Source of the DNA: a virus
Taxonomy: Duplodnaviria; Heunggongvirae; Uroviricota; Caudoviricetes
IMG/VR virus record: IMGVR_UViG_2627853701_000009
Direction: 5' to 3' (one strand)
DNA: 64,000 nucleotides
The position numbers were made by a program, and so were the translations under genes. Shown piece by piece: positions 1-62,892 of the stretch; the stretch's first letter is position 1, and each line of letters starts with the position of its first letter. Below the pieces are notes generated by a model. The model made no database searches and was not told the DNA's origin. It saw only the letters and a program-made list of their open reading frames with translations.

Positions 1-663
1 GCCTTGCCAGATGTTGTCTCAGATTCAGATTATGTCGCTCAATGCGCTGAGTGTAACGCTTGCTGATAACGTGCAGCTTTCCCTTCAGGCGTGATTCATA
101 CAGCGGCCAGCCATCCGTCATCCATACCACGACCTCAAAGGCCGACAGCAGGCTCAGAAGACGCTCCAGTGTGGCCAGAGTGCGTTCACCGAGGACGTGC
201 GCCACAACCGTCCTCCGTATCCTGTCATACGCGTAAAACAGCCAGCGCTGACGTGATTTAGCACCGACGTAGCCCCACTGTTCGTCCATTTCAGCGCAGA
301 CAATCACATCACTGCCCGGTTGTATGCGCGAGGTTACCGACTGCGGCCTGAGTTTTTTAAGTGACGTAAAACCGTGTTGAGGCCAACGCCCATAATGCGT
401 GCACTGGCGCGACATCCGACGCCATTCATGGCCATATCAATGATTTTCTGGTGCTTACCGGGCTGAGAGGCGGTGTAAGTGAACTGTAGTTGCCATGTTT
501 TACGGCAAGGAGAGCAGAGATAGCGCTGATGTCCGGCAGTGCTTTTGCCGTTACGCACCACGCCTTCAGTAGCGGAGCAGGAAGGACATCTGATGGAAAT
601 GGAAGCCACGCAAGCACCTTAAAATCACCATCATACACTAAATCAGTAAGTTGGCAGCATTAC
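1..663 (-). mobile_element. IS1 insertion sequence, partial (right end cut by window start); left terminus at about 663
   Basis: 91-aa ORF matches IS1 InsA; rc of 1-130 matches IS1 insB 3' region; rc of 641-663 is the IS1 terminal inverted repeat (GGTAATGCTGCCAACTTACTGAT). Confidence 0.85.
334..609 (-). CDS. insA: IS1 transposase subunit InsA
   Basis: [32 protein letters not shown]... near-identical to IS1 InsA from memory. Confidence 0.9.
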
Positions 664-833
664 CGAGATTGTTTTGTCGGAACTGATACGCTGGCGCTAA
701 TAGGTAGTAGGGTTCTTATGCAAAACATACAACCTCTTTCTTAATTTTCGAACCTGTTTAGGATTCTGTGTAAATTCAAAATAAACCTGTCTGAACATTC
801 CTAACAAACATCCACCGGACATGACAACAAAAA

Positions 834-855
834 CCGGAGCCGGACTCCGGTTTTT
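834..855. terminator. Bidirectional rho-independent terminator-like hairpin (CCGGAG-CCGGA-CTCCGG flanked by A and T runs) at tail-fibre end junction a
   Basis: Perfect 6-bp stem with A5 upstream and T5 downstream; same element at 16836-16856 and 20908-20928. Confidence 0.6.
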
Positions 856-868
856 GTGAAGCTGTCGG

Positions 869-1138
869 CTATTTCATTCCGCCAATATTTTCCCACGTCC
901 CGTCAGCACGCAGTATTTGCAGCGGTCTTACCACGCACTGTATCTGCTTTTTATCCGCATCCAGTATCACCACCTGCGTGATTACCCTGTCCTGCTCCGG
1001 GATAATACCATTCTCATCGGACTCCAGAATGTCTGCCGGTCCCAGTCGCAGCTGTGCTGTAAGTAACTCCCCGTTTTCACGGTCATCATGCTTTCCGCAA
1101 CCGCACAGACGCTGCATAAGTTTTTTTAGTATATTCAT
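869..1138 (-). CDS. Small protein (89 aa) directly downstream of tail fibre gene; function unknown
   Basis: ATG at 1138 two bases after fibre stop; conserved in copy B (20943-21212); C-terminal remnant reused at 16871-16942. Confidence 0.5.
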   Translation of the reverse strand: MNILKKLMQRLCGCGKHDDRENGELLTAQLRLGPADILESDENGIIPEQDRVITQVVILDADKKQIQCVVRPLQILRADGTWENIGGMK

Positions 1139-1139
1139 G

Positions 1140-2459
1140 TCATTCTCCTGTTCTGCCTGTATCACTGCCCACTTCATCCAGCCCCTTAACATCCTGCCAC
1201 GGCCCGTCACCAAACCTGACCTGCAAATGCTGAAAAAAACCCTGAACCCGTGTGGCATCTTTGGGGTCAAGAAAGGTCAGTCCGGTGATGAGTGCGCCAT
1301 CTGTATCCGGGAACCAGCCATGGCTGTTTGTCTCAATAATGCTCGCCGGCCCCAGACGAAAACGGATTTGTGTCTCCCCCGGGTCGCCCTTCGGTCCCTG
1401 AGGTCCGGTTGCCCCCACCGGGCCAGCCGCACCTGTTTCTCCTTTCGGTCCCTGTGGGCCTGCCGGGCCTGCCGCACCGGTATCTCCCTTTGGACCCTGT
1501 GGACCTGCATTTCCCGTCAGACCGGTCTCTCCCCGCTCTCCCCTGTCACCTTTCGGCCCCTGCGGGCCTGCCGGACCAGCATCACCTGCCGGTCCCCGTT
1601 CACCGGTTGCCCCGACAGGGCCGGTGTCACCGCGCTCTCCCTTATCACCCTTCGGCCCCTGAGGACCCGCGGGCCCCTGTTCCCCCTTTGGCCCGGGAGG
1701 TCCCACCACGGTGGGGATTCGGTTTACGGCCTCTTCCGCCGCTATCCTGCTTTGTTCCGCTGACTGTGCGCTTTCTGCTGACTCCCGGGCTTTTTCTGTT
1801 GCGGTCGTTGCATCCCTGGCTGCATTACCGGCTGCACTTTCTGCCGTCTTTCTTGACAATTCAGCTTCTGCTGCACTTTGTGATGACTCACTGGCTTTTT
1901 GAGCGGCCGCAGAAGCCGAGGACGAGGACGCATCCTCTGACTGCTTTGCAGCGGCTGCACTTTCTGCCGCCTGCCGGGCTGACTCCGATGCATCCCCTGC
2001 TGAAGTGTCAGCATTTGCAGCGCTCTCTTCTGCCTGACTGGCTGATATGCCGGCATTCCTCGCTGACGTCTCCGCCTCTCCGGCATTCTTCTTCGCCTCC
2101 TCAGCGTGACGCGCCACCTCTTCCACCATCAGTTCAAAACGACGCAGTGCCTCCGGCCGGACGTCATCCTCCGACATGGCACCGAGAAAATCATTCAGCG
2201 TCCCCGGTTGAGAATCTTCATACACGGTGATGGTCCCGGCATGTGACGGCGGGAATCCCTCCACCAACAGAATGACGCTGTACTGACCGTACTCAACGTC
2301 CATGCTGTAACGACCGGCTTCATCCGGATTTTCAGAGGCCACCGTGTTCACCACCACCGTGCTGCTGGTCCGTCTGGCTTTCAGTTGAATGGTGCAGTTC
2401 TCTACCGGTTTTCCTGTGCCGTCTTTCAGTACACCTGAAATCTTTACTGCCATATTCAC
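1140..2459 (-). CDS. Side tail fibre protein with collagen-like Gly-X-Y repeats
   Basis: Long run of GPxGxxG triplets ([28 protein letters not shown]...), Ala/Ser/Glu-rich coiled N-region; position after lom. Confidence 0.8.
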   Translation of the reverse strand: MNMAVKISGVLKDGTGKPVENCTIQLKARRTSSTVVVNTVASENPDEAGRYSMDVEYGQYSVILLVEGFPPSHAGTITVYEDSQPGTLNDFLGAMSEDDVRPEALRRFELMVEEVARHAEEAKKNAGEAETSARNAGISASQAEESAANADTSAGDASESARQAAESAAAAKQSEDASSSSASAAAQKASESSQSAAEAELSRKTAESAAGNAARDATTATEKARESAESAQSAEQSRIAAEEAVNRIPTVVGPPGPKGEQGPAGPQGPKGDKGERGDTGPVGATGERGPAGDAGPAGPQGPKGDRGERGETGLTGNAGPQGPKGDTGAAGPAGPQGPKGETGAAGPVGATGPQGPKGDPGETQIRFRLGPASIIETNSHGWFPDTDGALITGLTFLDPKDATRVQGFFQHLQVRFGDGPWQDVKGLDEVGSDTGRTGE

Positions 2460-2464
2460 CCCAC

Positions 2465-2490
2465 AAAAAAGCCCGCCTGAACCGGCGGGC
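2465..2490 (-). terminator. Rho-independent terminator downstream of lom
   Basis: Minus-strand hairpin GCCCGCC-GGTTCA-GGCGGGC followed by T6. Confidence 0.6.
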
Positions 2491-2517
2491 TGTCATAACA
2501 CTGTGTTACCTGGCTAA

Positions 2518-3117
2518 TCAGAACTTATAACCGACACCCACGATGAAACCGTCAGTGCGCCAGTCGCCACTGCCGGAGCCTTCATAAGCAATATCAATGG
2601 CCACGGATTCGGTCGGGTTAAACTGCACGCCAGCTCCCCACGCCAGAGACGTGTTGCTGTGGCGACCGTCATCACTTCCGGTCAGCACATCATGCGTTTT
2701 CCCCTTGTTGTCGGTCACCTGCAGATAATCACCGGAGAAAGTCGACACACGGCTGTAAGCCACACCCGCCATCGCATACGCGCTGAACCATTCATTCACG
2801 CGCACAGACGGCCCCGCCATATCGCTGAACCAGCGGTTACGCACGGAATCTTCATGCCAGCGGGTATCGCTGTAACGGGTCAGCTGGCGATTCTTGTCTC
2901 CTGCATAGCTGAATGACGTCACCATTCCCAGTGTGTCCGTAAACTCATAACGGTATTTCACGTTAATCCCGTTCAGTTCATCGCTGCCAGGAACGTTCGT
3001 CGAGACATGAAGATACCCCGCGCTCAGCGTTGACTGATGTTCAGACGCCCATGCAGGCGCACCGGATACGGCCAGACAAATGGCTGCGGACAAAATGGCG
3101 GCATAAAGTTTACGCAT
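2518..3117 (-). CDS. lom: Lom outer membrane protein (Ail/Lom family)
   Basis: 199 aa, signal peptide, near-identical to lambda Lom from memory. Confidence 0.9.
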   Translation of the reverse strand: MRKLYAAILSAAICLAVSGAPAWASEHQSTLSAGYLHVSTNVPGSDELNGINVKYRYEFTDTLGMVTSFSYAGDKNRQLTRYSDTRWHEDSVRNRWFSDMAGPSVRVNEWFSAYAMAGVAYSRVSTFSGDYLQVTDNKGKTHDVLTGSDDGRHSNTSLAWGAGVQFNPTESVAIDIAYEGSGSGDWRTDGFIVGVGYKF

Positions 3118-3141
3118 AATTACCTCTCGCTTTTCTGCAAT

Positions 3142-3165
3142 AAAAAAGGCGCCATTTCTGGCGCC
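3142..3165 (-). terminator. Rho-independent terminator between J and lom
   Basis: Minus-strand hairpin GGCGCC-AGAAAT-GGCGCC followed by T6. Confidence 0.6.
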
Positions 3166-3184
3166 CGTATATGGGTTATAAAAT

Positions 3185-6100
3185 TCAGCTGATACTGATG
3201 CCTGCGGTGGCTTTCTTCATCACCACAACCAGCAAATCGCTGATACTTGCTGTGGGATACCAGTTATTCACCAGCCATGCTGACACCGAAAACTCCAGCG
3301 TCATGTGACCGTGACCGGCAGGCATATCAATAACGCCACTGTAAATCAGCGTATTATCCAGCGCGGTACGGTTATAAATTTCAGCACCGTTTTTCCGCAC
3401 TATCAGACGGCATGAGGAGTAAATATCAGTATGCTCTCTCTCATGCTTAGCGCCGCTGAATGCCACCGCCGGAATAACAATCTGCCGGTCAAACGGCTGA
3501 TCGTCATAAACCCTGACGGTAATGGTCCCTGATGGCCACCGCTCCGGTGCCCGGGAGTCCCGCGGAAAAGCCTTACCCACTGTTTTGACTATATCGCCTT
3601 CAATCTGGTTGGCTGACAGTTTCCCCTTAATCTGACAGTTCTCATTAATCGTGACGTTGTTGAGCGTCCCCGCGTTCGCATTCACACTGCCACTGATATC
3701 CGCATTTTTAGCTGTCAGCTTTCCGTCCGGTGTCAGGGAAAATGCCGGCGGATTGCCGCCGGAGGTAATGGTGGGAGCCGTCAGGCGTTTCAGGAACACG
3801 TCGTTCATGAATATCTGATCGCCCTGACCAACAAACATCGGCTTTGTGTTGCCATTCGCAGGATTAATCATCGCAATCCTGTCTGCCGCCAGCAGCACCT
3901 GACTCTGCATTCCTGCTGGCGTATTCTCAATACCGGCACCGATACCCGCAATATAAAGGCGTCCGTCCTTCATCTGTTGCAGCTTCACAGCCCACATGCT
4001 GTTCAGATTATTATTTGTATCAACCTGAACCTTCTGTATCTGCTGGATCGCTGCACTCTGGTCTTCCAGTTTCTTATTGACGGTCTGCGTGATTTCATTA
4101 CTGACATCCGTGATGGACGTTCTGATTTCCGCCAGGTCAGGCGCAAGCTGACCGTTATCAATCTGAGTCCACAACTCCTGAGCCAGATGGGTTTTCCCTA
4201 TCTCTCCTTTGAAAAAATCCAGATAGCCGGATGCATCATCACTCGGCTGGCCAACAGCCTCCACAAATGCCGATTTGCCAACGGTGTTCACACTGCGGAT
4301 ATAAAAGTAATAATCATGGCCCGGTTTGATATTGATACTGGCGGCTATCCAGTACAGCCCCGTGCCAAGGTAGCGGGCTGTGGTTTCAACCTGCCTGATA
4401 TCGGTAATCCGCGTTTCCGAAAACCAGAACTCAAACTGTACCGTCGGGTCATACACCGCAAGACGCGGGACCGCTGTTATCTGAAAATAGCCCGGTGTCA
4501 GCTCAATCTGTGACGGCGCTGCCGGTGCGGCAATCCGGAACGATACCGACGCCGGATCGCCCTGCTGCCCCCACGCATTTACCGCCCGGACTGTCAGCCT
4601 GTAGTTCCCCGGCGCCAGTTGCGTGAAGCGGTATGTGGTTTCCGTCGTCCGGGCCGTGCTGACCAGCCGCTCACTGCCGTCATCCGCGGCCACGGTCAGG
4701 CGAAGCATAAAGCTCACGCCCTTCACCACCTTCGGCGTGTCCCATTTCGCCTGCGCCAGATACTGACCGTCAGCTGCGCTCACCTCCACCGTCAGGTGCT
4801 GCACTGCCGGAGGGATGACGCTGTTCAGGGTGCCTGACTGCGGCTCAAAGCTGGCCCCGTTATCCACGATGGCTTCCTTTTCCGGTACGTGCTGCACCGC
4901 CGTGATGGCAAAGGTGCCGTCCGTGTTTTCCCGGATGGAGACACAGCGGAACAGGCGACGACGCAGTGACGGCAGGGAGAGTCCCCATACACCGTATGTC
5001 TCCACACCATCAGGCAGGGTGCTGACCTGTATCCGGTCCGGCGCGGGGTGTGCAGTGATGGCCACGCTCACCGGCTTACCGCTGCCGTTAATCAGGTTCA
5101 CCGTGGCGGCACCGGTCTCCGGCAGGGTCACCTCACGGTCCAGTGTCAGGGTGCGGCTGGCGGCATCGATGGACAGGATACGTCCGCCGGTCATGGTCCC
5201 GGCATAGTCGTTATCACAGATTTCAATAATGTCACCGGGTGTGTGACGCAGCCCCTGTGACCCGAGCGTGAAATCCACCGTCTGCGTTTCCAGCAGTCCG
5301 GTCTTTATCACCCACAGCCCGGCACGGTGGGCCTGACCGCGACTGGTACAGCCGAACGCATCCATCTTCAGCAGGTTGCGCCCGTAGCGCAGTATGGCTT
5401 CCGGGTCTTCCACCAGTTCCGTGGAGGTCTGCCAGCCGTTCTGCGGGTCGGTGTAATTCACCTCCACCGCCGTGTGGCGGTCCTTCAGGGCGCTGAAGCT
5501 GTAGCGAAACCCCACGCCGTTATCATCCACCACCACATCACTGTTGGTGTACGGCCACACCACATCCGACGGGCTGTCCTGAACGAACGTCAGCGTCTGG
5601 CCGTTCCATACCGGCATACAGCGCATCGCCGAGCAGAAATCACTGAGAACGTCCCACGCCTTACGCTGTTGTGACAGGTACGCATTGAAAGTCATCCGCG
5701 GCTCTGTGCCCCCGAAACCATCCGGGACCGTCTGGTCGCAGTACTGTCCGATGGCATACAGCGCCCACTTGTCAACATCCGCCGCCACCAGACGTTTTCC
5801 CATGCCGTAGCGCGGGTGAGTCAGCATGTCCCACAGGCACCAGGCCGGGTTGTTGCTGTATGCCGGTTTCAGGCTGCCGTCCCAGATGCCGCTGTACGTG
5901 CGTTTTTCCGGGTCATAGTTTGACGGTACCTGGATGATGCGACCGCGGATATGGTAGTTCACCGTCATCTGCTGACCGCCAAACTGCTCCGCATCCACCT
6001 GCAGCCCCACAATCGCCGTGTTCGGGTAGCACTGTTTCACATCGATGATTTCGGTGTATGACGACCAGAGCGTCTTATTCTGCAGCTGGTCCGAGGTGCT

Positions 6101-6661
6101 GTCCGCTGTCTCCCGGACCATCCGGATGTTAAAGGGCCGCTCAGGCAGATTATCCAGAATCACCGACGCCAGAAACTGCGAGGTGGTCTTGCCGTTAATG
6201 GTGACATCCTTTTCCGTCACCCAGTTACCGTTACGCTGCAACTGAATCAGCAGTCGGACAGAAGAGGGATTACGGTCGCCCTTTGAGGTGGTCTCCAACA
6301 GTGACTGCACCCCGAAGGTGACCCGCAGGCGGTCAATGTTCGCGGACGTAATGGTGCGCGTCACCGGCTTTGCTTTCGTCACTTCCACGCCCAGTGCGGT
6401 TTCCGCCCCGGAGGACTCAAAGCCTTCAGGTGGTGTCTGCTCCTGCTCCCCGGCGCGCCAGACCGCTGTCACACCATGTATCACAGGATTACCGTCCGTG
6501 TCCGTCAGCGGGGTTTTGTTCACCAGGATACTCTGCAGCCCCTTCACCGGACCTTCAATCGGCCCTTCACCAATGGCGTCAATCACGCTCATCATCTGCG
6601 TGGACTTAAGATTGTCCTTTGCCTCTACCGGCGTGTGCCCCTTGCCGCCCCCTTTACCCAC
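3185..6661 (-). CDS. J: Tail tip host-specificity protein J (central tail fibre), 1158 aa from GTG
   Basis: Collinear with lambda J over full length; GTG start inferred because the upstream in-frame ATG extension is not conserved in copy B. Confidence 0.9.
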
Positions 6662-6735
6662 TCTGTCCCCCTCTCCTGTCTGATGTCTGAATCTGTTTAT
6701 GCCAGAAAACAACAGGCACCCCGGAGGTGCCTGTG

Positions 6736-6855
6736 TCATGACGGAATAAAATTTCTGAAACTCTTCACATTTCCGGCAATTGCCTGTAGCCGCAATAATG
6801 ACGCTGCATTACTTTTTTGATGCCTGAAAAATAACTCCATAACGTTAATCTTCAT
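6736..6855 (-). CDS. Candidate 39-codon ORF inside the inserted I-J intergenic region ([16 protein letters not shown]...)
   Basis: ATG with GGAG about 8 nt upstream; identical in copy B; flanked by two hairpins; no homolog recalled. Confidence 0.25.
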
Positions 6856-6900
6856 CGTTCTCTCCCGCAGCTCCGCTAACTCTGCGGGATTTTTTTATTT

Positions 6901-7578
6901 TCATCCCCGCCCGATAACCACCACTTTCCCGTCTCCGCCCTCATCACGGGTACTGATGTCCTGGGAGATTCGCCGGGAGCCAACCAGCATTTCACCGTAA
7001 GGCACCGGCATCGGGTTCCCCTGGGCAATCATGTTATCCAGCGAGGAAAAGTACGTGTTCTGTCTGCCGTTATCCGTTGCGCGGTAATCCGGTGTTTTTG
7101 CCTTCGGGGCCAGCATCTGGGCCACACCGCCCAGAATCATGCTGGCTCCAAGTGAAAACAGCATCGTGGTGGCAGAAAAACCACCGGCTGCCAGGGCTGA
7201 ACCCCATAACGCCATTGATGCCCCGGCAGTGAAGAAAGAGCCCACGATGGCTGCCGCCCCCAGCACAATCTGCAGTCCACCCTTTCCGGCCCCGGCCAGT
7301 CGCGGCACAATGTGGATGACCGTTCCCTCACCCAGCTGTTCGTGAAGACGGGCGTACACCGCCTCCGGTGCCGTGTCTTCACCGCGAATACGTATCTGGT
7401 ACCAGCCTTCGTTCATCTGACGGCGGAATCCCGGCATCTGCAGCGACAGGGCACGGATGGCTTCCGCTGCCGTGTTCACGTACAGGCTGAGGCGGCGGCC
7501 AAATCGTTGCAAATCCCCGTGAAGGCAGATGCGTGCCAGTGGCGGTGACGCCAGACAGAATGCGTTCGTCGTTGCCAT
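6901..7578 (-). CDS. I: Tail tip assembly protein I
   Basis: MATTNAFCLASPPLARICLHGDLQRFGRR... matches lambda I. Confidence 0.9.
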   Translation of the reverse strand: MATTNAFCLASPPLARICLHGDLQRFGRRLSLYVNTAAEAIRALSLQMPGFRRQMNEGWYQIRIRGEDTAPEAVYARLHEQLGEGTVIHIVPRLAGAGKGGLQIVLGAAAIVGSFFTAGASMALWGSALAAGGFSATTMLFSLGASMILGGVAQMLAPKAKTPDYRATDNGRQNTYFSSLDNMIAQGNPMPVPYGEMLVGSRRISQDISTRDEGGDGKVVVIGRG

Positions 7579-8219
7579 TTTTCCGAATACCTCTCCCGTT
7601 TACTCAGTTGTTCAGGCAGATGGTGAAGCAGTTCACCGTTGCCGCAGTATATGGCGGCATGATTGGCCACCGATGCGCCAAAGCAGCACAGCAGGATATC
7701 GCCCGCCTGTGCAGAGGACAGGGGCACCCGGTAAAAACCAGTCGCCGCCATATTGTCCAGGTAAAGGTTCTGACCGTTGCGCCACCAGTCATCCTCACGC
7801 ACAAAATCCGGCAGCGTTATCCCCGCCAGATGGTATGCATCCCGGAACAGGGTGTAACAGTCCGTCACCCCGTGCTCAAAACGACGCCCGGTCAGGTGCG
7901 GCACACAGCGGAATTTGTGAATTTCCCCCCGGCAGACCAGCCACCAGGGCAGGGCACTCTTTATCTGCAGCCGCCGGTCGGCCTCGCTCAGCCAGGGCAG
8001 ACCACCAGGGTGGCTGTGAACCAGCGCCACAATCTCCCCCTGCATCTCTGCCTGCAGCCAGTCTTCCGGCGCAATACGAAAATACGCCTCCGGCTCTGCG
8101 GAGATATTCACGCAGGGCTGGTACCGTTCGCCCTCCGGGGTGCCTATCACGAAGCCGCACGACTCCGCAGGCGCACACCGCCGGGCATGCACCAGAATCG
8201 CTGATTCAGTCTGTGTCAT
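7476..8219 (-). CDS. K: Tail tip assembly protein K (NlpC/P60 and JAB/MPN motifs), intact copy
   Basis: MTQTESAIL..., HSHPGG motif, DCYTLFRDAY Cys motif; position between L and I. Confidence 0.85.
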   Translation of the reverse strand: MTQTESAILVHARRCAPAESCGFVIGTPEGERYQPCVNISAEPEAYFRIAPEDWLQAEMQGEIVALVHSHPGGLPWLSEADRRLQIKSALPWWLVCRGEIHKFRCVPHLTGRRFEHGVTDCYTLFRDAYHLAGITLPDFVREDDWWRNGQNLYLDNMAATGFYRVPLSSAQAGDILLCCFGASVANHAAIYCGNGELLHHLPEQLSKRERYSEKWQRRTHSVWRHRHWHASAFTGICNDLAAASACT

Positions 8220-8229
8220 AAAACAGGAT

Positions 8230-8928
8230 TTACTGCGAAAGTTTATTGATGGAAAGGAAACCGCCAAAATTAGCCACCATGCCGCGCATCTCACACCCGC
8301 GCATGCACTTGCTGCATCTGTCCTTACGGATATCCGTGGTGGGGTTGTCGAACTCATCCGCCACCGCAGGACCGTTATACCCGCATTCATCTCCCCGGTA
8401 ATCCCACATACAGGTGTTCGCCAGCATGATGCGACCGGGAAACAGCGCACCGTCCGTCTCCGTCGGTGTTGCCAGCACAAACGAGGCTGTCATGGCCGTC
8501 AGCTCTGACATCTGCTCCACCACCCACCGGTCAGTCAGCTCCTGCTCCGGGTCGGCCTCCGGATTGCCTGCCACAAAGTTCACCGCATCCAGAAAACGGG
8601 CATACACCCGGCGGCGGACCACCGTGGCACCCACCAGGCTCTGCAAATCCTCCGCCATCCCGGTGACAAGACCGAACAGATTGGACACCGTCAGCGACGG
8701 GCGGGCACTGCTGCCCTTTCCGTTCATCTCAAAGCCACTGCCCTCAATCGGGTACGCCTGATATTGCCGCCCCTGCCAGGTCACCGGCTCCCCTTTTTCA
8801 TTCAGCTCATTGCAGAAAAAATACCGCTCACCGCCCTGCGCCGTCAGGTCGATTTCCCAGAGTACCACCCGCGGTGACTGCTCTGATTTAACCGACTCGT
8901 TCAGACTTTCTTCGTGAATATCCTGCAT
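8230..8928 (-). CDS. L: Tail tip protein L
   Basis: 232 aa, matches lambda L including C-terminal Cys cluster. Confidence 0.9.
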   Translation of the reverse strand: MQDIHEESLNESVKSEQSPRVVLWEIDLTAQGGERYFFCNELNEKGEPVTWQGRQYQAYPIEGSGFEMNGKGSSARPSLTVSNLFGLVTGMAEDLQSLVGATVVRRRVYARFLDAVNFVAGNPEADPEQELTDRWVVEQMSELTAMTASFVLATPTETDGALFPGRIMLANTCMWDYRGDECGYNGPAVADEFDNPTTDIRKDRCSKCMRGCEMRGMVANFGGFLSINKLSQ

Positions 8929-9257
8929 CAGTTCACCACCTGCTTAAACTCCGCGCTGAACTCAACGCGCAACATCCCGACCCGCGCAGACCACCCGGCA
9001 CAGGTCACCTTTATCTGCCGGTATGCATAGGGTGGCTTCCACAAAAATGCCTTCCAGCCTCCGTGCTCTGCCAGGAATGCCTCCAGATGTCGGGCCTCCT
9101 CCCGGGTCACGGAAAGCGTCACACGGTATGTTTTCAGGTCAGCATTCAGCCCTGCCGCCATACGCTGTGAGTACCCGTCACCAAAACGCACTTCACGCAC
9201 CGATGGCTGCGAGTTCACCTCCATATCCGGCTTCACTTTCCAGCGAAAGGTTTTCAT
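8928..9257 (-). CDS. M: Tail tip protein M
   Basis: 109 aa, matches lambda M. Confidence 0.9.
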   Translation of the reverse strand: MKTFRWKVKPDMEVNSQPSVREVRFGDGYSQRMAAGLNADLKTYRVTLSVTREEARHLEAFLAEHGGWKAFLWKPPYAYRQIKVTCAGWSARVGMLRVEFSAEFKQVVN

Positions 9258-57178: not shown

Positions 57179-57586
57179 ATGAAAAACGAAACCTTCGGTG
57201 CTCGCCTCTTATACAGGCGAAAAAAATTAAAACTGTCTCAGGCCGCATTAGGTAAGCTGGTCAAAGTGGCTCACGTAACAATTTCTCAATGGGAAAGAGA
57301 TGAAACACAGCCAGCGGGGAAGAGATTATTCGCACTGAGCCAGGCGCTTCAGTGCTCGCCGACTTGGCTTCTTTTTGGAGATGAAGATAAGCAACCAGGC
57401 GAACCGATCCCAGATAATCAGCCAGTCAATCTGACAGAAGATCAAAAAGAGTTGCTTCAACTGTTCGACGCACTGCCTGAGTCAGAGCAAAAGGCTCTGT
57501 TGTCAGAGATGCGTGCTCGAGTTGAGAATTTCAACAAACTTTTTGAAGAACTACTCAAAGCTCGCAAAAGAAGCGCAAATAAATAA
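57179..57586 (+). CDS. dicA: Prophage repressor, DicA-type (XRE helix-turn-helix, no LexA-like cleavage domain)
   Basis: 135 aa, LSQAALGKLVKVAHVTISQWERDETQP...MRARVENFNKLFEELLKARKRS; DicA-like. Confidence 0.75.
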   Translation: MKNETFGARLLYRRKKLKLSQAALGKLVKVAHVTISQWERDETQPAGKRLFALSQALQCSPTWLLFGDEDKQPGEPIPDNQPVNLTEDQKELLQLFDALPESEQKALLSEMRARVENFNKLFEELLKARKRSANK

Positions 57587-57715: not shown

Positions 57716-57927
57716 TACTCATCAAGACACCGCACGGTGTTCTCAGCAAACAGTTCCGCTACCCGGCGTTAAGGGGAAGCAGAGGATTTCTCAGTGGGCG
57801 AGTCAAACATCAGAATGGAAGGCGTCCAGGGATCAGCAAAGAAACAGCGATGGCGCTTTATATTGATATCAGCGCCATTGCCGGACAGGTAAGAGTTATC
57901 AGAGCGGTAACTAAGCGGTATGCGCCT

Positions 57928-58134
57928 TTACTTCAGAAAGTCTCTGGTGAGTGCACCGAAGATATTGTCAACGATTTCGTCATCGAACTGCGAGGACTCA
58001 TCTTCAGTTACAAGGTGACCACAATTTTTGCAGATGGCTCCCGCGAAACTGTCAGAGCCCTGCGGCTTAAAGGATGTGTCAAAGACTTTGCCACCACATT
58101 CTGGGCAAGAAAACTTGATTGTATTCATAACCAA
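57928..58134 (-). CDS. Zinc-ribbon small protein (CPECGG...CKNCGH); competes with overlapping plus-strand ORF 57850-58149
   Basis: Cys-x2-Cys...Cys-x2-Cys motif; strand assignment unresolved. Confidence 0.35.
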   Translation of the reverse strand: MVMNTIKFSCPECGGKVFDTSFKPQGSDSFAGAICKNCGHLVTEDESSQFDDEIVDNIFGALTRDFLK

Positions 58135-58220
58135 TTTCCTCTCGAGTAACAGACCCCTCAGAGGATACCACCTCGCCTGACGTGGTTAAAAGCAGGCAAC
58201 GCTAACCACAAGGAGCCGAC

Positions 58221-59413: not shown

Positions 59414-59466
59414 TTTCTGGTGACGTTTGGCGGCATCTGTTTGCCCATGAACTGATGTCCGCCCTT
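59414..59466 (+). ncRNA. dicF: DicF small regulatory RNA (ftsZ-targeting), with intrinsic terminator
   Basis: 5' segment TTTCTGGTGACGTTTGGCGG identical to E. coli DicF from memory; terminal hairpin GGCGGCATC...GATGTCCGCC followed by TTTTT; directly upstream of dicB. Confidence 0.8.
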
Positions 59467-59638
59467 TTTAAAGTGAATTTTGTGATGCAGTGAATGCGGC
59501 TAAGCGCACGCGGAACAGTTAAAGCTAAAAACAGTGTTATGGGTGGATTCTCTGTATCCGGCGTTAATTGTTAACTGGTTAACGTCACCTGGAGGCACCA
59601 GGCACCGCATCACAAAATTCATTGTTGAGGACGCGATA

Positions 59639-59827
59639 ATGGAAACGTTATTACCAAACGTTAATACGTCTGAAGGTTGTTTTGAAATTGGTGTCACTAT
59701 CAGTAACCCTGTATTTACTGAAGATGCCATTAACAAGAGAAAACACGAACGGGAGTTATTAAATAAAATATGCATTCTTTCAATGCTGGCCCGTTTACGT
59801 CCGATACAAAAAGGATGCTGGCAATGA
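59639..59827 (+). CDS. dicB: Cell division inhibitor DicB
   Basis: 62 aa, METLLPNVNTSEGCFEIGVTISNPVFTEDAINKRKHERELLNKICILSMLARL..., near-identical to K-12 DicB from memory. Confidence 0.85.
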   Translation: METLLPNVNTSEGCFEIGVTISNPVFTEDAINKRKHERELLNKICILSMLARLRPIQKGCWQ

Positions 59828-60015
59828 ATACAGCATTTGCACTTGTTCTGACAGTTTTTCTTGTTTCCGGAGAGCCAGTTGATATTGCAGTCAGTGTTCA
59901 CAGGACAATGCAGGAGTGTGTGACTGCAGCAACCGAACAGAAAATTCCCGGTAACTGTTACCCCGTCGATAAAGTTATTCACCAGGATAATAACGAAATC
60001 CCGGCAGGTCTTTAA
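59824..60015 (+). CDS. ydfD: YdfD-like small membrane protein (Qin lysis-associated)
   Basis: 63 aa, MNTAFALVLTVFLVSGEPVDIAVSVHRTMQECVTAATEQKIPGNCYPVDK; ATGA overlap with dicB stop. Confidence 0.7.
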   Translation: MNTAFALVLTVFLVSGEPVDIAVSVHRTMQECVTAATEQKIPGNCYPVDKVIHQDNNEIPAGL

Positions 60016-60107
60016 AACAGTTCCGTAATAAACATCCGATTTCATTCTTATATGCCAGCAATGGCAGGGATTTGTTCACCCTTAAATCTGTAATGAGGTA
60101 AAACAAA

Positions 60108-62579
60108 ATGAGTAAAGTCTTTATTTGCGCCGCCATTCCGGACGAACAGGCAATAAAGGAAGAAGGTGCTGTCGCTGTAGCCACTGCCATTGAAGCCGGT
60201 GATGAACGTCGCGCCCGCGCAAAATTTCACTGGCAATTCCTGGAGCATTATCCGGCTGCTCAGGACTGCGCTTATAAATTTCTTGTTTGCGAGGATAAAC
60301 CCGGTATACCCCGCCCTGCCCTCGATTCCTGGGATGCTGAATATATGCAGGAAAACCGCTGGGATGAGGGGGCTGCTTCCTTTGTCCCGGTTGAGACTGA
60401 ATCCGATCCGATGAACGTCGCTTTTGACAAGCTGGCCCCTGAAGTACAGAACGCTGTCATGGTTAAGTTCGACACATGTGAAAACATCACCGTTGATATG
60501 GTGATTAGCGCGCAGGAATTGTTGCAGGAAGACATGGCAACATTCGACGGACATATCGTTGAAGCGTTGATGAAAATGCCAGAAGTTAACGCCATGTATC
60601 CGGAGCTTAAGCTGCATGCCATCGGGTGGGTTAAGCATAAATGTAAGCCTGGTGCCAAATGGCCCGAAATTCAGGCAGAAATGCGCATCTGGAAAAAACG
60701 TCGCGAAGGTGAACGCAAGGAAACCGGAAAATACACGTCTGTTGTTGATCTCGCCCGCGCCAGAGTCCACCGACAGCACACTGAAAACTCAGCAGAAAAA
60801 ATCCCCCCTGTCACTGCAGTCATTCGTCGCGAATATAAGCAGACATGGAAAACACTGGATGACGAACTGGCCTACGCTCTCTGGCCTGGTGATGTGGATG
60901 CCGGAAACATTGACGGCAGCATCCATCGCTGGGCAAAAAATGAAGTTATCGACAACGACCGCGAAGACTGGAAGCGTATCTCGGCATCAATGCGCAAACA
61001 GCCTGATGCCCTTCGCTACGACCGCCAGACTATTTTTGGCCTTGTCCGTGAACGTCCGATCGACATTCACAAAGACCCTGTGGCACTGAACAAATACATT
61101 ACTGAATACCTGACTACAAAGGGCGTGTTTGAAGATGAAGGAACAAATCAGAGCGCAACTGACACTCTCTCGTCGCCAGTACCAGAAACTGATGCAGTGG
61201 AAACGGCAATTCCGGACAACGAAAAAACCGAATGCAAAGTGGAAGTCGAACCATCTGTAGAGCGTGAGGGGCCGTTCTACTTCCTCTTCACCGACAAGGA
61301 TGGCGAAAAATACGGTCGCGCAAACAAACTTTCTGGTCTGGATAAGGCGCTGGCTGCCGGGGCTACTGAAATCACAAAAGAAGAATATTTTGCCCGAAAA
61401 AATGGCACATACACAGGCTTACCGCAAAATGCAAATACCGCACAAAATTCTGAACAACCAGAACCGGTAAAAGTTACCGCTGACGAAGTAAAGAAAATTA
61501 TGCAGGCAGCCAATATCAGCCAGCCTGACGCCAATCAGTTGCTCGCCGCATCACGTGGTGAATTTGTTGCAGGGATTAGCGACCCGAATGATCCGAAATG
61601 GGTGAAGGGGATTGAAACCCGCGATTCTGTGAACCAGAACCAGCAAGAAACGGAACAGAACGACCAGAAAGCGGAACAAAACAGCCCAAATACGCAACAA
61701 AACGAGCCAGAAACGAAACAACCTGAGCCAGTAGCGCAACAGGAACCGGAAAAAGTCTGCACCGCCTGCGGTCAGACCGGCGGCGGCAACTGCCCTGATT
61801 GTGGCGCGGTGATGGGCGACGCAACATACCAGGAAACATTCGATGAAGAGTATCAGGTTGAAGTTCAGGAAGATGATCCGGAGGAAATGGAAGGCGCTGA
61901 ACATCCACACAAGGAGAACACTGACGGCAATCAGCATCACGATAGCGATAATGAAACTGGCGAGACGGCAGATCACTCAATTAAGGTGAACGGTCATCAA
62001 GAAATCACATCCACCAGCAGGACGTGTGACCATCTAATGATCGACCTTGAAACCATGGGAAAAAATCCTGATGCCCCGATCATCTCAATAGGTGCAATAT
62101 TTTTCGATCCGCAAACCGGAGATATGGGACCGGAATTTAGTAAGACTATCGATCTGGAAACTGCTGGCGGGGTCATTGATCGGGACACCATTAAATGGTG
62201 GCTTAAGCAATCACGCGAAGCGCAATCTGCCATTATGACCGATGAAATCCCGTTAGATGATGCACTATTACAATTGCGGGAATTTATCGACGAAAACTCC
62301 GGTGAATTTTTTGTTCAGGTCTGGGGAAATGGAGCCAACTTCGACAACACGATTTTGCGCCGTTCATACGAACGGCAGGGGATCCCCTGCCCGTGGCGTT
62401 ACTACAACGATCGCGATGTACGCACAATCGTTGAGCTGGGGAAAGCCATAGACTTCGATGCCAGAACGGCTATTCCATTCGAAGGTGAGCGCCATAATGC
62501 ACTTGATGACGCCCGTTACCAGGCAAAATACGTTTCAGTTATCTGGCAAAAACTGATCCCGAATCAGGCTGATTTTTAA
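60108..62579 (+). CDS. Large prophage protein (823 aa) with central zinc-ribbon and C-terminal DEDDh (DnaQ-like) 3'-5' exonuclease domain
   Basis: C-terminal motifs MIDLETMG, GNGANFDNTIL and ERHNALDDARYQ; CTACGQTGGGNCPDCG; acidic Gln-rich linker; occupies ydfE position. Confidence 0.7.
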   Translation: MSKVFICAAIPDEQAIKEEGAVAVATAIEAGDERRARAKFHWQFLEHYPAAQDCAYKFLVCEDKPGIPRPALDSWDAEYMQENRWDEGAASFVPVETESDPMNVAFDKLAPEVQNAVMVKFDTCENITVDMVISAQELLQEDMATFDGHIVEALMKMPEVNAMYPELKLHAIGWVKHKCKPGAKWPEIQAEMRIWKKRREGERKETGKYTSVVDLARARVHRQHTENSAEKIPPVTAVIRREYKQTWKTLDDELAYALWPGDVDAGNIDGSIHRWAKNEVIDNDREDWKRISASMRKQPDALRYDRQTIFGLVRERPIDIHKDPVALNKYITEYLTTKGVFEDEGTNQSATDTLSSPVPETDAVETAIPDNEKTECKVEVEPSVEREGPFYFLFTDKDGEKYGRANKLSGLDKALAAGATEITKEEYFARKNGTYTGLPQNANTAQNSEQPEPVKVTADEVKKIMQAANISQPDANQLLAASRGEFVAGISDPNDPKWVKGIETRDSVNQNQQETEQNDQKAEQNSPNTQQNEPETKQPEPVAQQEPEKVCTACGQTGGGNCPDCGAVMGDATYQETFDEEYQVEVQEDDPEEMEGAEHPHKENTDGNQHHDSDNETGETADHSIKVNGHQEITSTSRTCDHLMIDLETMGKNPDAPIISIGAIFFDPQTGDMGPEFSKTIDLETAGGVIDRDTIKWWLKQSREAQSAIMTDEIPLDDALLQLREFIDENSGEFFVQVWGNGANFDNTILRRSYERQGIPCPWRYYNDRDVRTIVELGKAIDFDARTAIPFEGERHNALDDARYQAKYVSVIWQKLIPNQADF

Positions 62580-62643
62580 TGTTCAACCCCGGTCGTTGCC
62601 CACCAGCTATAGTGGCGGCGACCATGATTAGCGAACGACGCTC

Positions 62644-62892
62644 ATGGCAAGACTTATTCTGCTCACTGAGTGGGCAAAAGAGGAATTCAGTGAACCGGTC
62701 CCAACTCCGAGTACGTTAAGTAAATACGCTAAAGCCGGAATGATATTTCCTCTCCCCAAAAAAGTTGGAAGACGCTGGCGAGTGGATCCGCAAGCTCGCT
62801 TTGTCGGAATGGTAAACAAGCCGGAGGTGATCGCCACAGATCACCCTGCTTTGAAGAGGATACTGGAAGATGGCGCGCCCGCGAAAATATAA
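62644..62892 (+). CDS. xis: Excisionase-like protein
   Basis: 82 aa, LLTEWAKEE...MIFPLPKKVGRRWRV resembles lambda Xis; overlaps int start. Confidence 0.65.
   Translation: MARLILLTEWAKEEFSEPVPTPSTLSKYAKAGMIFPLPKKVGRRWRVDPQARFVGMVNKPEVIATDHPALKRILEDGAPAKI

Follow-up and report, generated by a model that had tools for sequence, protein, structure and literature searches.

The protein encoded at positions 60108-62579 (+) of a 64,000-nucleotide (nt) stretch of Caudoviricetes DNA (IMG/VR record IMGVR_UViG_2627853701_000009, referred to below in its entirety as the window) is a RecE-like scaffold protein of 823 amino acids (aa), which carries a nuclease of a family with polarity opposite to that of RecE and has no annealase. 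On balance, we favor the reading that it is a 3'-5' exonuclease working alone on DNA ends, and that a recombination scaffold delivers it in the course of lytic growth. This reading draws on the following lines of evidence: (i) the gene is an intact, selected, and very widespread phage early gene with a complete DexA-family DEDDh domain; (ii) the protein contains a folded multi-module scaffold that is homologous to part of RecE and is reused combinatorially with recombination enzymes; and (iii) the DEDDh version has no annealase partner. The elements of the gene and its product are given below, with the ratio of nonsynonymous to synonymous substitution rates (dN/dS) and the predicted local distance difference test score (pLDDT) where these apply.

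60095..60098, + strand: Shine-Dalgarno sequence GAGG, 9 nt 5' of the ATG, read from the sequence
60108..62579, + strand: complete 823-aa open reading frame (ORF), called "exonuclease" by PGAP (WP_000048551.1), PHROG 2082
60108..60407, + strand: scaffold module A1 (aa 1-100), predicted alpha/beta, pLDDT ~95, dN/dS 0.07
60420..60722, + strand: scaffold module A2 (aa 105-205), predicted helical, dN/dS 0.10
60840..61127, + strand: scaffold module B (aa 245-340), predicted helical, dN/dS 0.09, the shared core module
61269..61403, + strand: small predicted beta-beta-alpha-beta-alpha module (aa 388-432), pLDDT ~95, dN/dS 0.03
61518..61622, + strand: conserved motif LLAASRGEFVAGISDPNDPKWVKGI (aa 471-505), near-identical in RecE 453-485
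61752..61817, + strand: Cys4 zinc ribbon (aa 549-570), C551/C554/C562/C565, CxxC-x7-CxxC
61818..62027, + strand: acidic flexible linker (aa 571-640), dN/dS ~0.9
62028..62576, + strand: DEDDh 3'-5' exonuclease domain of the DexA/Rv2179c-like family (aa 641-823), assigned from Pfam and the alignment of catalytic residues

The C-terminal domain matches the Pfam family PF16473 (Rv2179c-like) over aa 642-813 with an E value of 2.4e-67 (226.5 bits against a cutoff of 27), and the match spans profile positions 2-177 of 177. The catalytic residues D646, E648, D746, H796, and D801 are all present, are conserved in 9 to 11 of the 11 aligned sequences (the query and 10 relatives, of which two are close), and align to D7, E9, D119, H186, and D191 of phage T4 DexA. 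An initial annotation, made from the letters of the window alone, had described this ORF as a combination of a zinc ribbon, an acidic linker, and a DnaQ-like exonuclease with clear DEDDh motifs; each of these elements was recovered, the linker as a net charge of about -19 over aa 561-640, whereas the PD-(D/E)XK RecE-type fold that it had named as the competing outcome was looked for with Pfam and by comparison with RecE and was not found. A search of the domain profile against the PDB returned T4 DexA (PDB 8KEL/8KEN) as its sole match (E 5e-15; single-sequence E 1e-6), making DexA the only solved sequence relative, and did not find the Rv2179c RNase structure even at E up to 1. This pattern favors a DNA substrate despite the product name "3'-5' exoribonuclease". 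DexA differs from the domain studied here in being a stand-alone protein of 227 aa with extra loops and no scaffold, at about 23% identity.

The polarity of the DEDDh family is 3'-5'. By analogy with it and with DexA, the C-terminal 183 residues would form a Mg2+-dependent DEDDh 3'-5' exonuclease, most likely acting at the 3' ends of DNA. The domain has homologues in 1,618 phage records, among them a stand-alone 189-aa ortholog with 58% identity, encoded directly upstream of xis and int in Salmonella phage S.Typ Adana; such stand-alone DEDDh exonucleases of temperate phages share the position before xis/int and differ in having no N-terminal scaffold, and their existence argues that the exonuclease module is self-sufficient. 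Production of a stand-alone exonuclease from M644, the residue that lines up with Met1 of the stand-alone orthologs and of the Escherichia coli DexA homologue EcD, was considered and rejected; this codon has no usable Shine-Dalgarno sequence, the nearest AGGA being 14 nt off.

The ORF is uninterrupted, starts with ATG, and is 100% identical to the gene for WP_000048551.1 of E. coli O157:H7 strain TR01. It clearly encodes a real protein, since dN/dS is 0.23 overall against the 93.5% identical ortholog of phage HannyBb and the match to PHROG 2082 ("exonuclease", 823 positions) runs from end to end. The gene finds a match in 4,799 of 5,426 complete E. coli genomes (88%), and in 3,532 of the 5,426 at least 80% of it is covered at one place. 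The median number of matching places per E. coli genome is 2 and the maximum is 10, with up to 10 in O157 genomes. Copies often sit within defective prophages, and the same arrangement is found in the isolated phages HannyBb, Tritos, and mEp460.

Upstream of the nuclease, an AlphaFold2 model of aa 1-470, built on a 40-sequence alignment, has a mean pLDDT of 85 and contains four modules separated by disordered linkers. The substitution pattern gives independent support to this picture, since dN/dS against HannyBb is 0.03-0.10 in the folded modules and 0.6-0.9 in the predicted linkers (0.14 in the DEDDh domain), and we are confident that the modules modeled in aa 1-470 are folded and under strong purifying selection. 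Beyond them lie the conserved motif, a Q/E/P-rich segment (aa 506-548), the ribbon, and the acidic linker, so that the N-terminal 640 residues would constitute a multi-module scaffold made of YdfE_N and YdfE_C, a beta-alpha module, the motif, the Cys4 ribbon, and an acidic tether. The modules of aa 1-470 have no informative solved analogue, and no fold analogue backs any specific mechanism. Our local copy of Pfam had no match in the N-terminal two-thirds of the protein, and the families PF27430 (YdfE_N) and PF27432 (YdfE_C) are assigned by proxy, from precomputed matches on proteins that are 90-96% identical. The statement in the initial annotation that the N-terminal ~500 residues lack a known function still holds as far as function goes, although the region does belong to named Pfam families and is in part homologous to RecE.

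The homology with RecE (exodeoxyribonuclease VIII) of the Rac prophage is extensive. BLASTP aligns aa 262-625 with RecE 278-591 (E 5e-61), and aa 470-625, including the ribbon and the acidic linker, are about 75% identical to RecE; aa 1-260 have no RecE counterpart by BLASTP. Both proteins are of similar size (866 aa for RecE), and each is encoded by the last large early-left ORF before xis and int. On the other hand, RecE has a PD-(D/E)XK (5'-3') nuclease, a PF06630 head, and recT downstream, whereas the 823-aa protein has a DEDDh (3'-5') nuclease, a YdfE-type head formed by modules A1 and A2, and no recT. Membership in RecE proper was rejected on several counts: the NCBIfam RecE equivalog NF007259 scores 278.7 bits against a cutoff of 1269, with only aa 452-625 matching well; there is no match to RecE 595-866 and none to a PDDEXK Pfam family; PF06630 is not matched at E up to 1; and recT is missing. 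Full-length RecE improves linear-linear recombination over the nuclease domain alone (PMC11611040), which shows that a related scaffold is important to a DNA-end reaction.

Relatives of the scaffold show how it is reused. One large homology search yielded only relatives of at least 86% identity, and an exhaustive HMMER search with aa 1-505 recovered only 221 clusters among 1.84 billion representatives. The modules were mapped on 60 representatives of at least 480 residues, in which the head is either of YdfE type ("A") or of RecE type ("F", PF06630) and is followed by the middle module "B". Module B is present in 55 of the 60 and also in RecE (aa 293-390), and among these long representatives the Cys4 ribbon is confined to the E. 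coli DEDDh lineage and E. coli RecE. As payloads these proteins carry the DEDDh domain (9), a RecE-type PD-(D/E)XK nuclease (13), a third tail (20), a fourth tail (7), or another or no payload (11), and each payload occurs with both head types. The fourth tail (P0125, P0210, P0218, P0227, P0242, P0251, and P0253) is about 200-290 aa long and matches phrog_26058, of unknown function; it has no Pfam match and does not resemble the other three payloads.

The third tail is, according to its predicted structure, a Rad52-fold annealase. It contains Rad52-like motifs. Sequence tests were marginal, with an E value of 0.004 for Pfam Rad52_Rad22 (below the cutoff for acceptance) and, by hhalign, 0.024 for human RAD52, collinear over aa 46-161, and a profile and sequence search of the PDB gave nothing. 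The predicted structure was decisive: the AlphaFold2 model (pLDDT 83) matches human Rad52(1-212) with a Foldseek E value of 1.1e-6 and a probability of 1.00, and this was its sole significant match. The YdfE scaffold therefore appears to be fused to a single-strand annealing protein as well. These fusions (L006, L016, L019, L021, L023, and L024, from Pantoea, Raoultella, Rosenbergiella, E. whittamii, and a metagenome) have the YdfE_N/YdfE_C scaffold in common with the 823-aa protein, as well as its operon position, and differ from it in their payload, an annealase with a long coiled coil and no nuclease domain. The label "exonuclease" that PHROGs gives them (phrog_2489 and phrog_7838) is probably a misannotation.

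The genes that follow each version differ by payload. Scanning a single genome from each species turned up 14 loci, every one of them in Enterobacterales (Escherichia, Shigella, Pantoea, Serratia, Raoultella, Enterobacter, Citrobacter, and Rosenbergiella). Loci with the PD-(D/E)XK payload have a RecT-family gene next (PF03837, E 1e-35 to 3e-44), those with the Rad52-fold payload have a Sipho_Gp157 gene next, and those with the DEDDh payload, whichever the head, have xis and/or int directly next and nothing else. The Sipho_Gp157 gene always comes next after the Rad52-fold fusions, and the Rad52-Gp157 pair is possibly worth study in its own right.

The window has the DEDDh arrangement. From 14148 to 64000 it is collinear with a lambdoid prophage of TR01 integrated beside ompW, and the gene is the last of a dicBF-type early-left operon whose layout matches the Qin dicBF operon. 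The order on the + strand is a DicA-like repressor, small ORFs including ydfC, a DicF-type small RNA (sRNA), dicB, the ydfD-like gene, the 823-aa gene, xis, and int:

57179-57586, in the + strand gene order: DicA-like repressor
59415..59464, + strand: variant of the DicF-type sRNA, 43.5 bits, slightly below the Rfam gathering score of 48
59639..59827, + strand: dicB (cell-division inhibitor), upstream in the operon of the 823-aa gene
59824..60015, + strand: ydfD-like DUF1482 gene, directly 5' of the 823-aa gene
62644..62892, + strand: excisionase (xis), directly 3' of the 823-aa gene with no annealase gene between
62870..64000, + strand: integrase, with ompW just past it in the matching TR01 genome

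Apart from dicB, ydfC, the ydfD-like gene, and xis, the small neighboring ORFs belong to PHROGs of unknown function; none of the small ORFs in the operon encodes an annealase or Gam, and PGAP annotates neither in the matching region of TR01. This argues that the DEDDh version is not half of a two-component recombinase; it differs from the Red/RecET type both in lacking an annealase in cis and in the polarity of its family, 3'-5' rather than 5'-3'. Its place between the dicB/ydfD-like genes and xis/int is the slot that recE-recT occupy in Rac, and the K-12 Qin pseudogene ydfE corresponds to the first 767 nt of the gene, truncated by IS2. The initial annotation was right both in placing the gene in the recombination-gene slot and in recognizing the Qin ydfE fragment.

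We propose that the following would happen in the phage. The gene would be transcribed from a DicA-repressed, pL-like dicBp, so that the protein would be made on induction or infection, as can be expected from the operon; dicBp is the equivalent of pL and is repressed by DicA (PMC10448788), and RegulonDB, as cited in PMC11430063, places ydfE on the dicB transcript. Enterobacterales lambdoid phages appear to reuse one scaffold for interchangeable DNA-end enzymes, namely the RecE nuclease, the Rad52-fold annealase, and the 3'-5' exonuclease, and the scaffold would presumably bring its payload to a common site, which may be a DNA end, an intermediate of recombination or replication, or some factor of the host. 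For the DEDDh version the probable task would be to trim or degrade linear DNA from its 3' ends, be it recombination intermediates or the DNA of the host or of competitors. The absence of a cis annealase, together with a polarity opposite to that of RecE, probably speaks for such 3'-end trimming rather than a Red/RecET-type recombinase. A wider and tentative idea, which we hold to be possible yet doubtful, is that the YdfE/RecE N-terminal region is a payload-independent delivery scaffold for DNA-end enzymes with a step of its own, e.g., end recognition, bridging, or recruitment of a host factor. If true, this would account for the advantage that full-length RecE has over its nuclease domain in linear-linear recombination, and the DEDDh version would stand for a pathway of end processing that needs no annealase, has the opposite polarity, and is present in most E. 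coli genomes.

Comparison with the characterized relatives of the exonuclease domain bears on several alternatives. DexA switches between unmodified DNA and DNA containing 5-hydroxymethylcytosine (5hmC) and scavenges host DNA in T4, while EcD digests only 5hmC DNA and protects against T4, a strategy named HREX (PMC12153337, published in 2025); the same source reports a role of DexA in break repair during T4 intron homing. We recovered EcD by means of its published cloning primers, through a scan of viral contigs with 17 nt of the forward primer; the 22-nt EcD primer was absent from the complete E. coli genomes searched. The recovered protein of 189 aa (MIDTETLGNGPDAA...TTPFLNI) has Ala78 at the position of DexA D90, as published, as well as W132 and E145. 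It is encoded at 5679-6248 (-) of an IMG/VR contig (L045), in the early operon of a P2-like prophage that comprises an integrase, a helix-turn-helix repressor, a Cox-like gene, DUF4761, EcD, and a Dam-type D12 methyltransferase, and by this context EcD is a temperate-phage early gene and not a chromosomal host gene. EcD and the 823-aa protein are thus both temperate-phage early genes of the same DEDDh subfamily. They differ in that EcD stands alone and in the three diagnostic residues. The exonuclease domain is 38% identical to EcD over 180 residues and 23% identical to DexA. In place of DexA W152/EcD W132 it has Y766, a position that varies (Y, W, or V) among the DEDDh-payload relatives; the position of DexA D169/EcD E145 is taken by K779 or a gap, depending on the alignment of an unstable loop, with an acidic residue in neither case; and D718 is retained at DexA D90/EcD Ala78, the tetramer-forming Asp whose loss defines the EcD state. 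Judged by these three positions, following PMC12153337, the HREX signature appears to be absent from the domain.

These residues weigh most directly on the possibility that the protein is a prophage defense or superinfection-exclusion nuclease of the HREX/EcD type, one that degrades the 5hmC DNA of T-even phages, spares the host, and complements DicB. Several observations would fit such a role: the 38% domain identity is to an enzyme that digests 5hmC T4 DNA and protects E. coli, and accessions in Table S3 of the same study fall in the same WP_0000485xx block (PMC12153337); the dicBF operon has a documented anti-phage activity through DicB, which blocks DNA entry by other phages (PMC6832061); and 88% of complete E. 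coli genomes keep the gene, in many cases within defective prophages. However, the residues tied by that study to 5hmC recognition (DexA W152 and D169) are not conserved and D718 is retained, no defense-protein model of PADLOC-DB 2.0 (a 2023 library, which predates HREX) matched at E up to 0.01, the locus is a repressor-controlled lytic operon that is not constitutively expressed, and the 640-residue scaffold common to RecE- and Rad52-type proteins would be left unexplained, so that we regard this role as unlikely. The suggestion in the initial annotation of an anti-defense nuclease gained no support: EcD, the nearest characterized relative, is reported to be a defense and not an anti-defense nuclease (PMC12153337), and its diagnostic residues are absent here. 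In its general form, as an anti-defense or host-takeover nuclease that would degrade host DNA to salvage nucleotides or destroy retron multicopy single-stranded DNA or a signaling oligonucleotide, the idea could draw on the scavenging of host DNA by DexA in T4 (PMC12153337) and on the status of the gene as an early lytic gene of a temperate phage. Searches of the literature and of libraries gave no match to described anti-defense proteins. Degradation of the host chromosome is not known for temperate lambdoid phages either, and we consider this role very unlikely.

A positive role in recombination, which the initial annotation had also raised, deserves separate treatment. The exonuclease could work with an annealase supplied in trans or with host RecA/RecFOR, for instance in the removal of non-homologous 3' flaps, the scaffold providing the contacts with partners. 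The scaffold is common to RecE and the Rad52-fold annealase, the gene occupies the slot of recET and exo-bet, the many lambdoid prophages of O157:H7 make trans partners available, and DexA is reported to act in homing-associated break repair, according to PMC12153337. Against this stand the lack of an adjacent annealase at the DEDDh loci examined, when one is present at the RecE-nuclease loci checked downstream, and a polarity opposite to that of all known SynExo exonucleases. The original guess gains indirect support, since in relatives the scaffold carries the RecE nuclease or the Rad52-fold annealase; this version, however, has no annealase partner and would have the wrong polarity for a Red/RecET-type reaction. 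This explanation overlaps with the one that we prefer, from which it differs solely in the positive role in recombination, and that role seems to us distinctly unlikely. The least probable of the alternatives, at a level we would call highly improbable, is a 3'-5' exoribonuclease that matures or turns over DicF, the dicBF transcript, or host RNAs. PF16473 is named after the Mycobacterium tuberculosis RNase Rv2179c, PGAP calls many copies "3'-5' exoribonuclease", and the gene is cotranscribed with the DicF sRNA, itself processed from the operon transcript; but the PDB profile match is to the DNA exonuclease DexA only and not to Rv2179c, the closest characterized relatives, DexA and EcD, act on DNA (PMC12153337), and the proteins that share the scaffold are DNA recombination enzymes.

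The protein is not a new entity: PGAP, PHROG, and Pfam already list its family, and its domain makeup can be read from these databases. Not described in the searchable literature are (i) the modular use of one core module with two heads and at least four payloads, among them a Rad52-fold annealase, (ii) the partner-gene rule, and (iii) the relation to and distinction from EcD. The 823-aa protein is probably misnamed both as "exodeoxyribonuclease VIII" and as "3'-5' exoribonuclease". A homologous scaffold with three DNA-end payloads, each with its own partner rule, makes the function of the RecE N-terminal region (560-600 residues) approachable by experiment, a question that dates from the finding that full-length RecE boosts linear-linear recombination for direct cloning. 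The DEDDh version is found in roughly 88% of the complete E. coli genomes, frequently in multiple copies, and it may be relevant to phage resistance mediated by prophages, to the recombination of prophages in enterohemorrhagic E. coli, and as an accessory for recombineering.

The rate of synonymous substitution (dS) against HannyBb is 0.13-0.57 over 60108-61751 and about 0.03 over 61752-62576, from the ribbon to the stop, a roughly ten-fold fall from the ribbon onward; the gene is therefore mosaic, and the comparison indicates that the 3' module was probably exchanged recently between otherwise diverged copies. A plausible recombination junction is marked by similarity to recE at the DNA level:

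61560..61974 (gene nt 1453-1867), + strand: segment sharing about 85% DNA identity with Rac recE and probably the junction of a module swap

Outside the window, TR01 carries a second ompW-type prophage in tandem (NZ_CP033605.1, 1739236-1741679), which holds a frameshifted copy of the 823-aa gene and duplicates of xis and int; window positions 61815-64000 match it at 98%.

In the operon, a default Rfam scan misses the DicF variant at 59415-59464, which scores under the gathering threshold; compared with the Rfam model, its loop is one base shorter and its terminator stem has a bulge. The Rfam sRNA STnc100 gives a full-length match below threshold at 59453-59658 (+) (32.5 bits against a gathering score of 47, E 7.5e-5), which overlaps the DicF terminator and the 5' region of dicB. 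Further upstream, a 99-aa ORF at 57850-58149 (+), also called by PGAP, matches phrog_21318 over its full length (E 2e-67); antisense to it, a 68-aa ORF at 57928-58134 (-) has two CxxC pairs and a weaker match to phrog_4852 (E 1e-9).

Positions 1-14147 of the window are not collinear with TR01 and contain rearranged tail-region genes of the same prophage type at 90-98% identity, which suggests that these 14 kb may derive from a different neighboring or mosaic prophage in the source strain. From about 14148 to 53541, the TR01 annotation of the collinear region lists virulence cargo and two tRNA genes. The adhesin gene paa lies within the ompW prophage, and the adjoining region contains the type III effector genes nleA, nleH1-2, nleF, nleG-family members, and espM1, together with a degraded integrase of its own and several insertion sequence elements.

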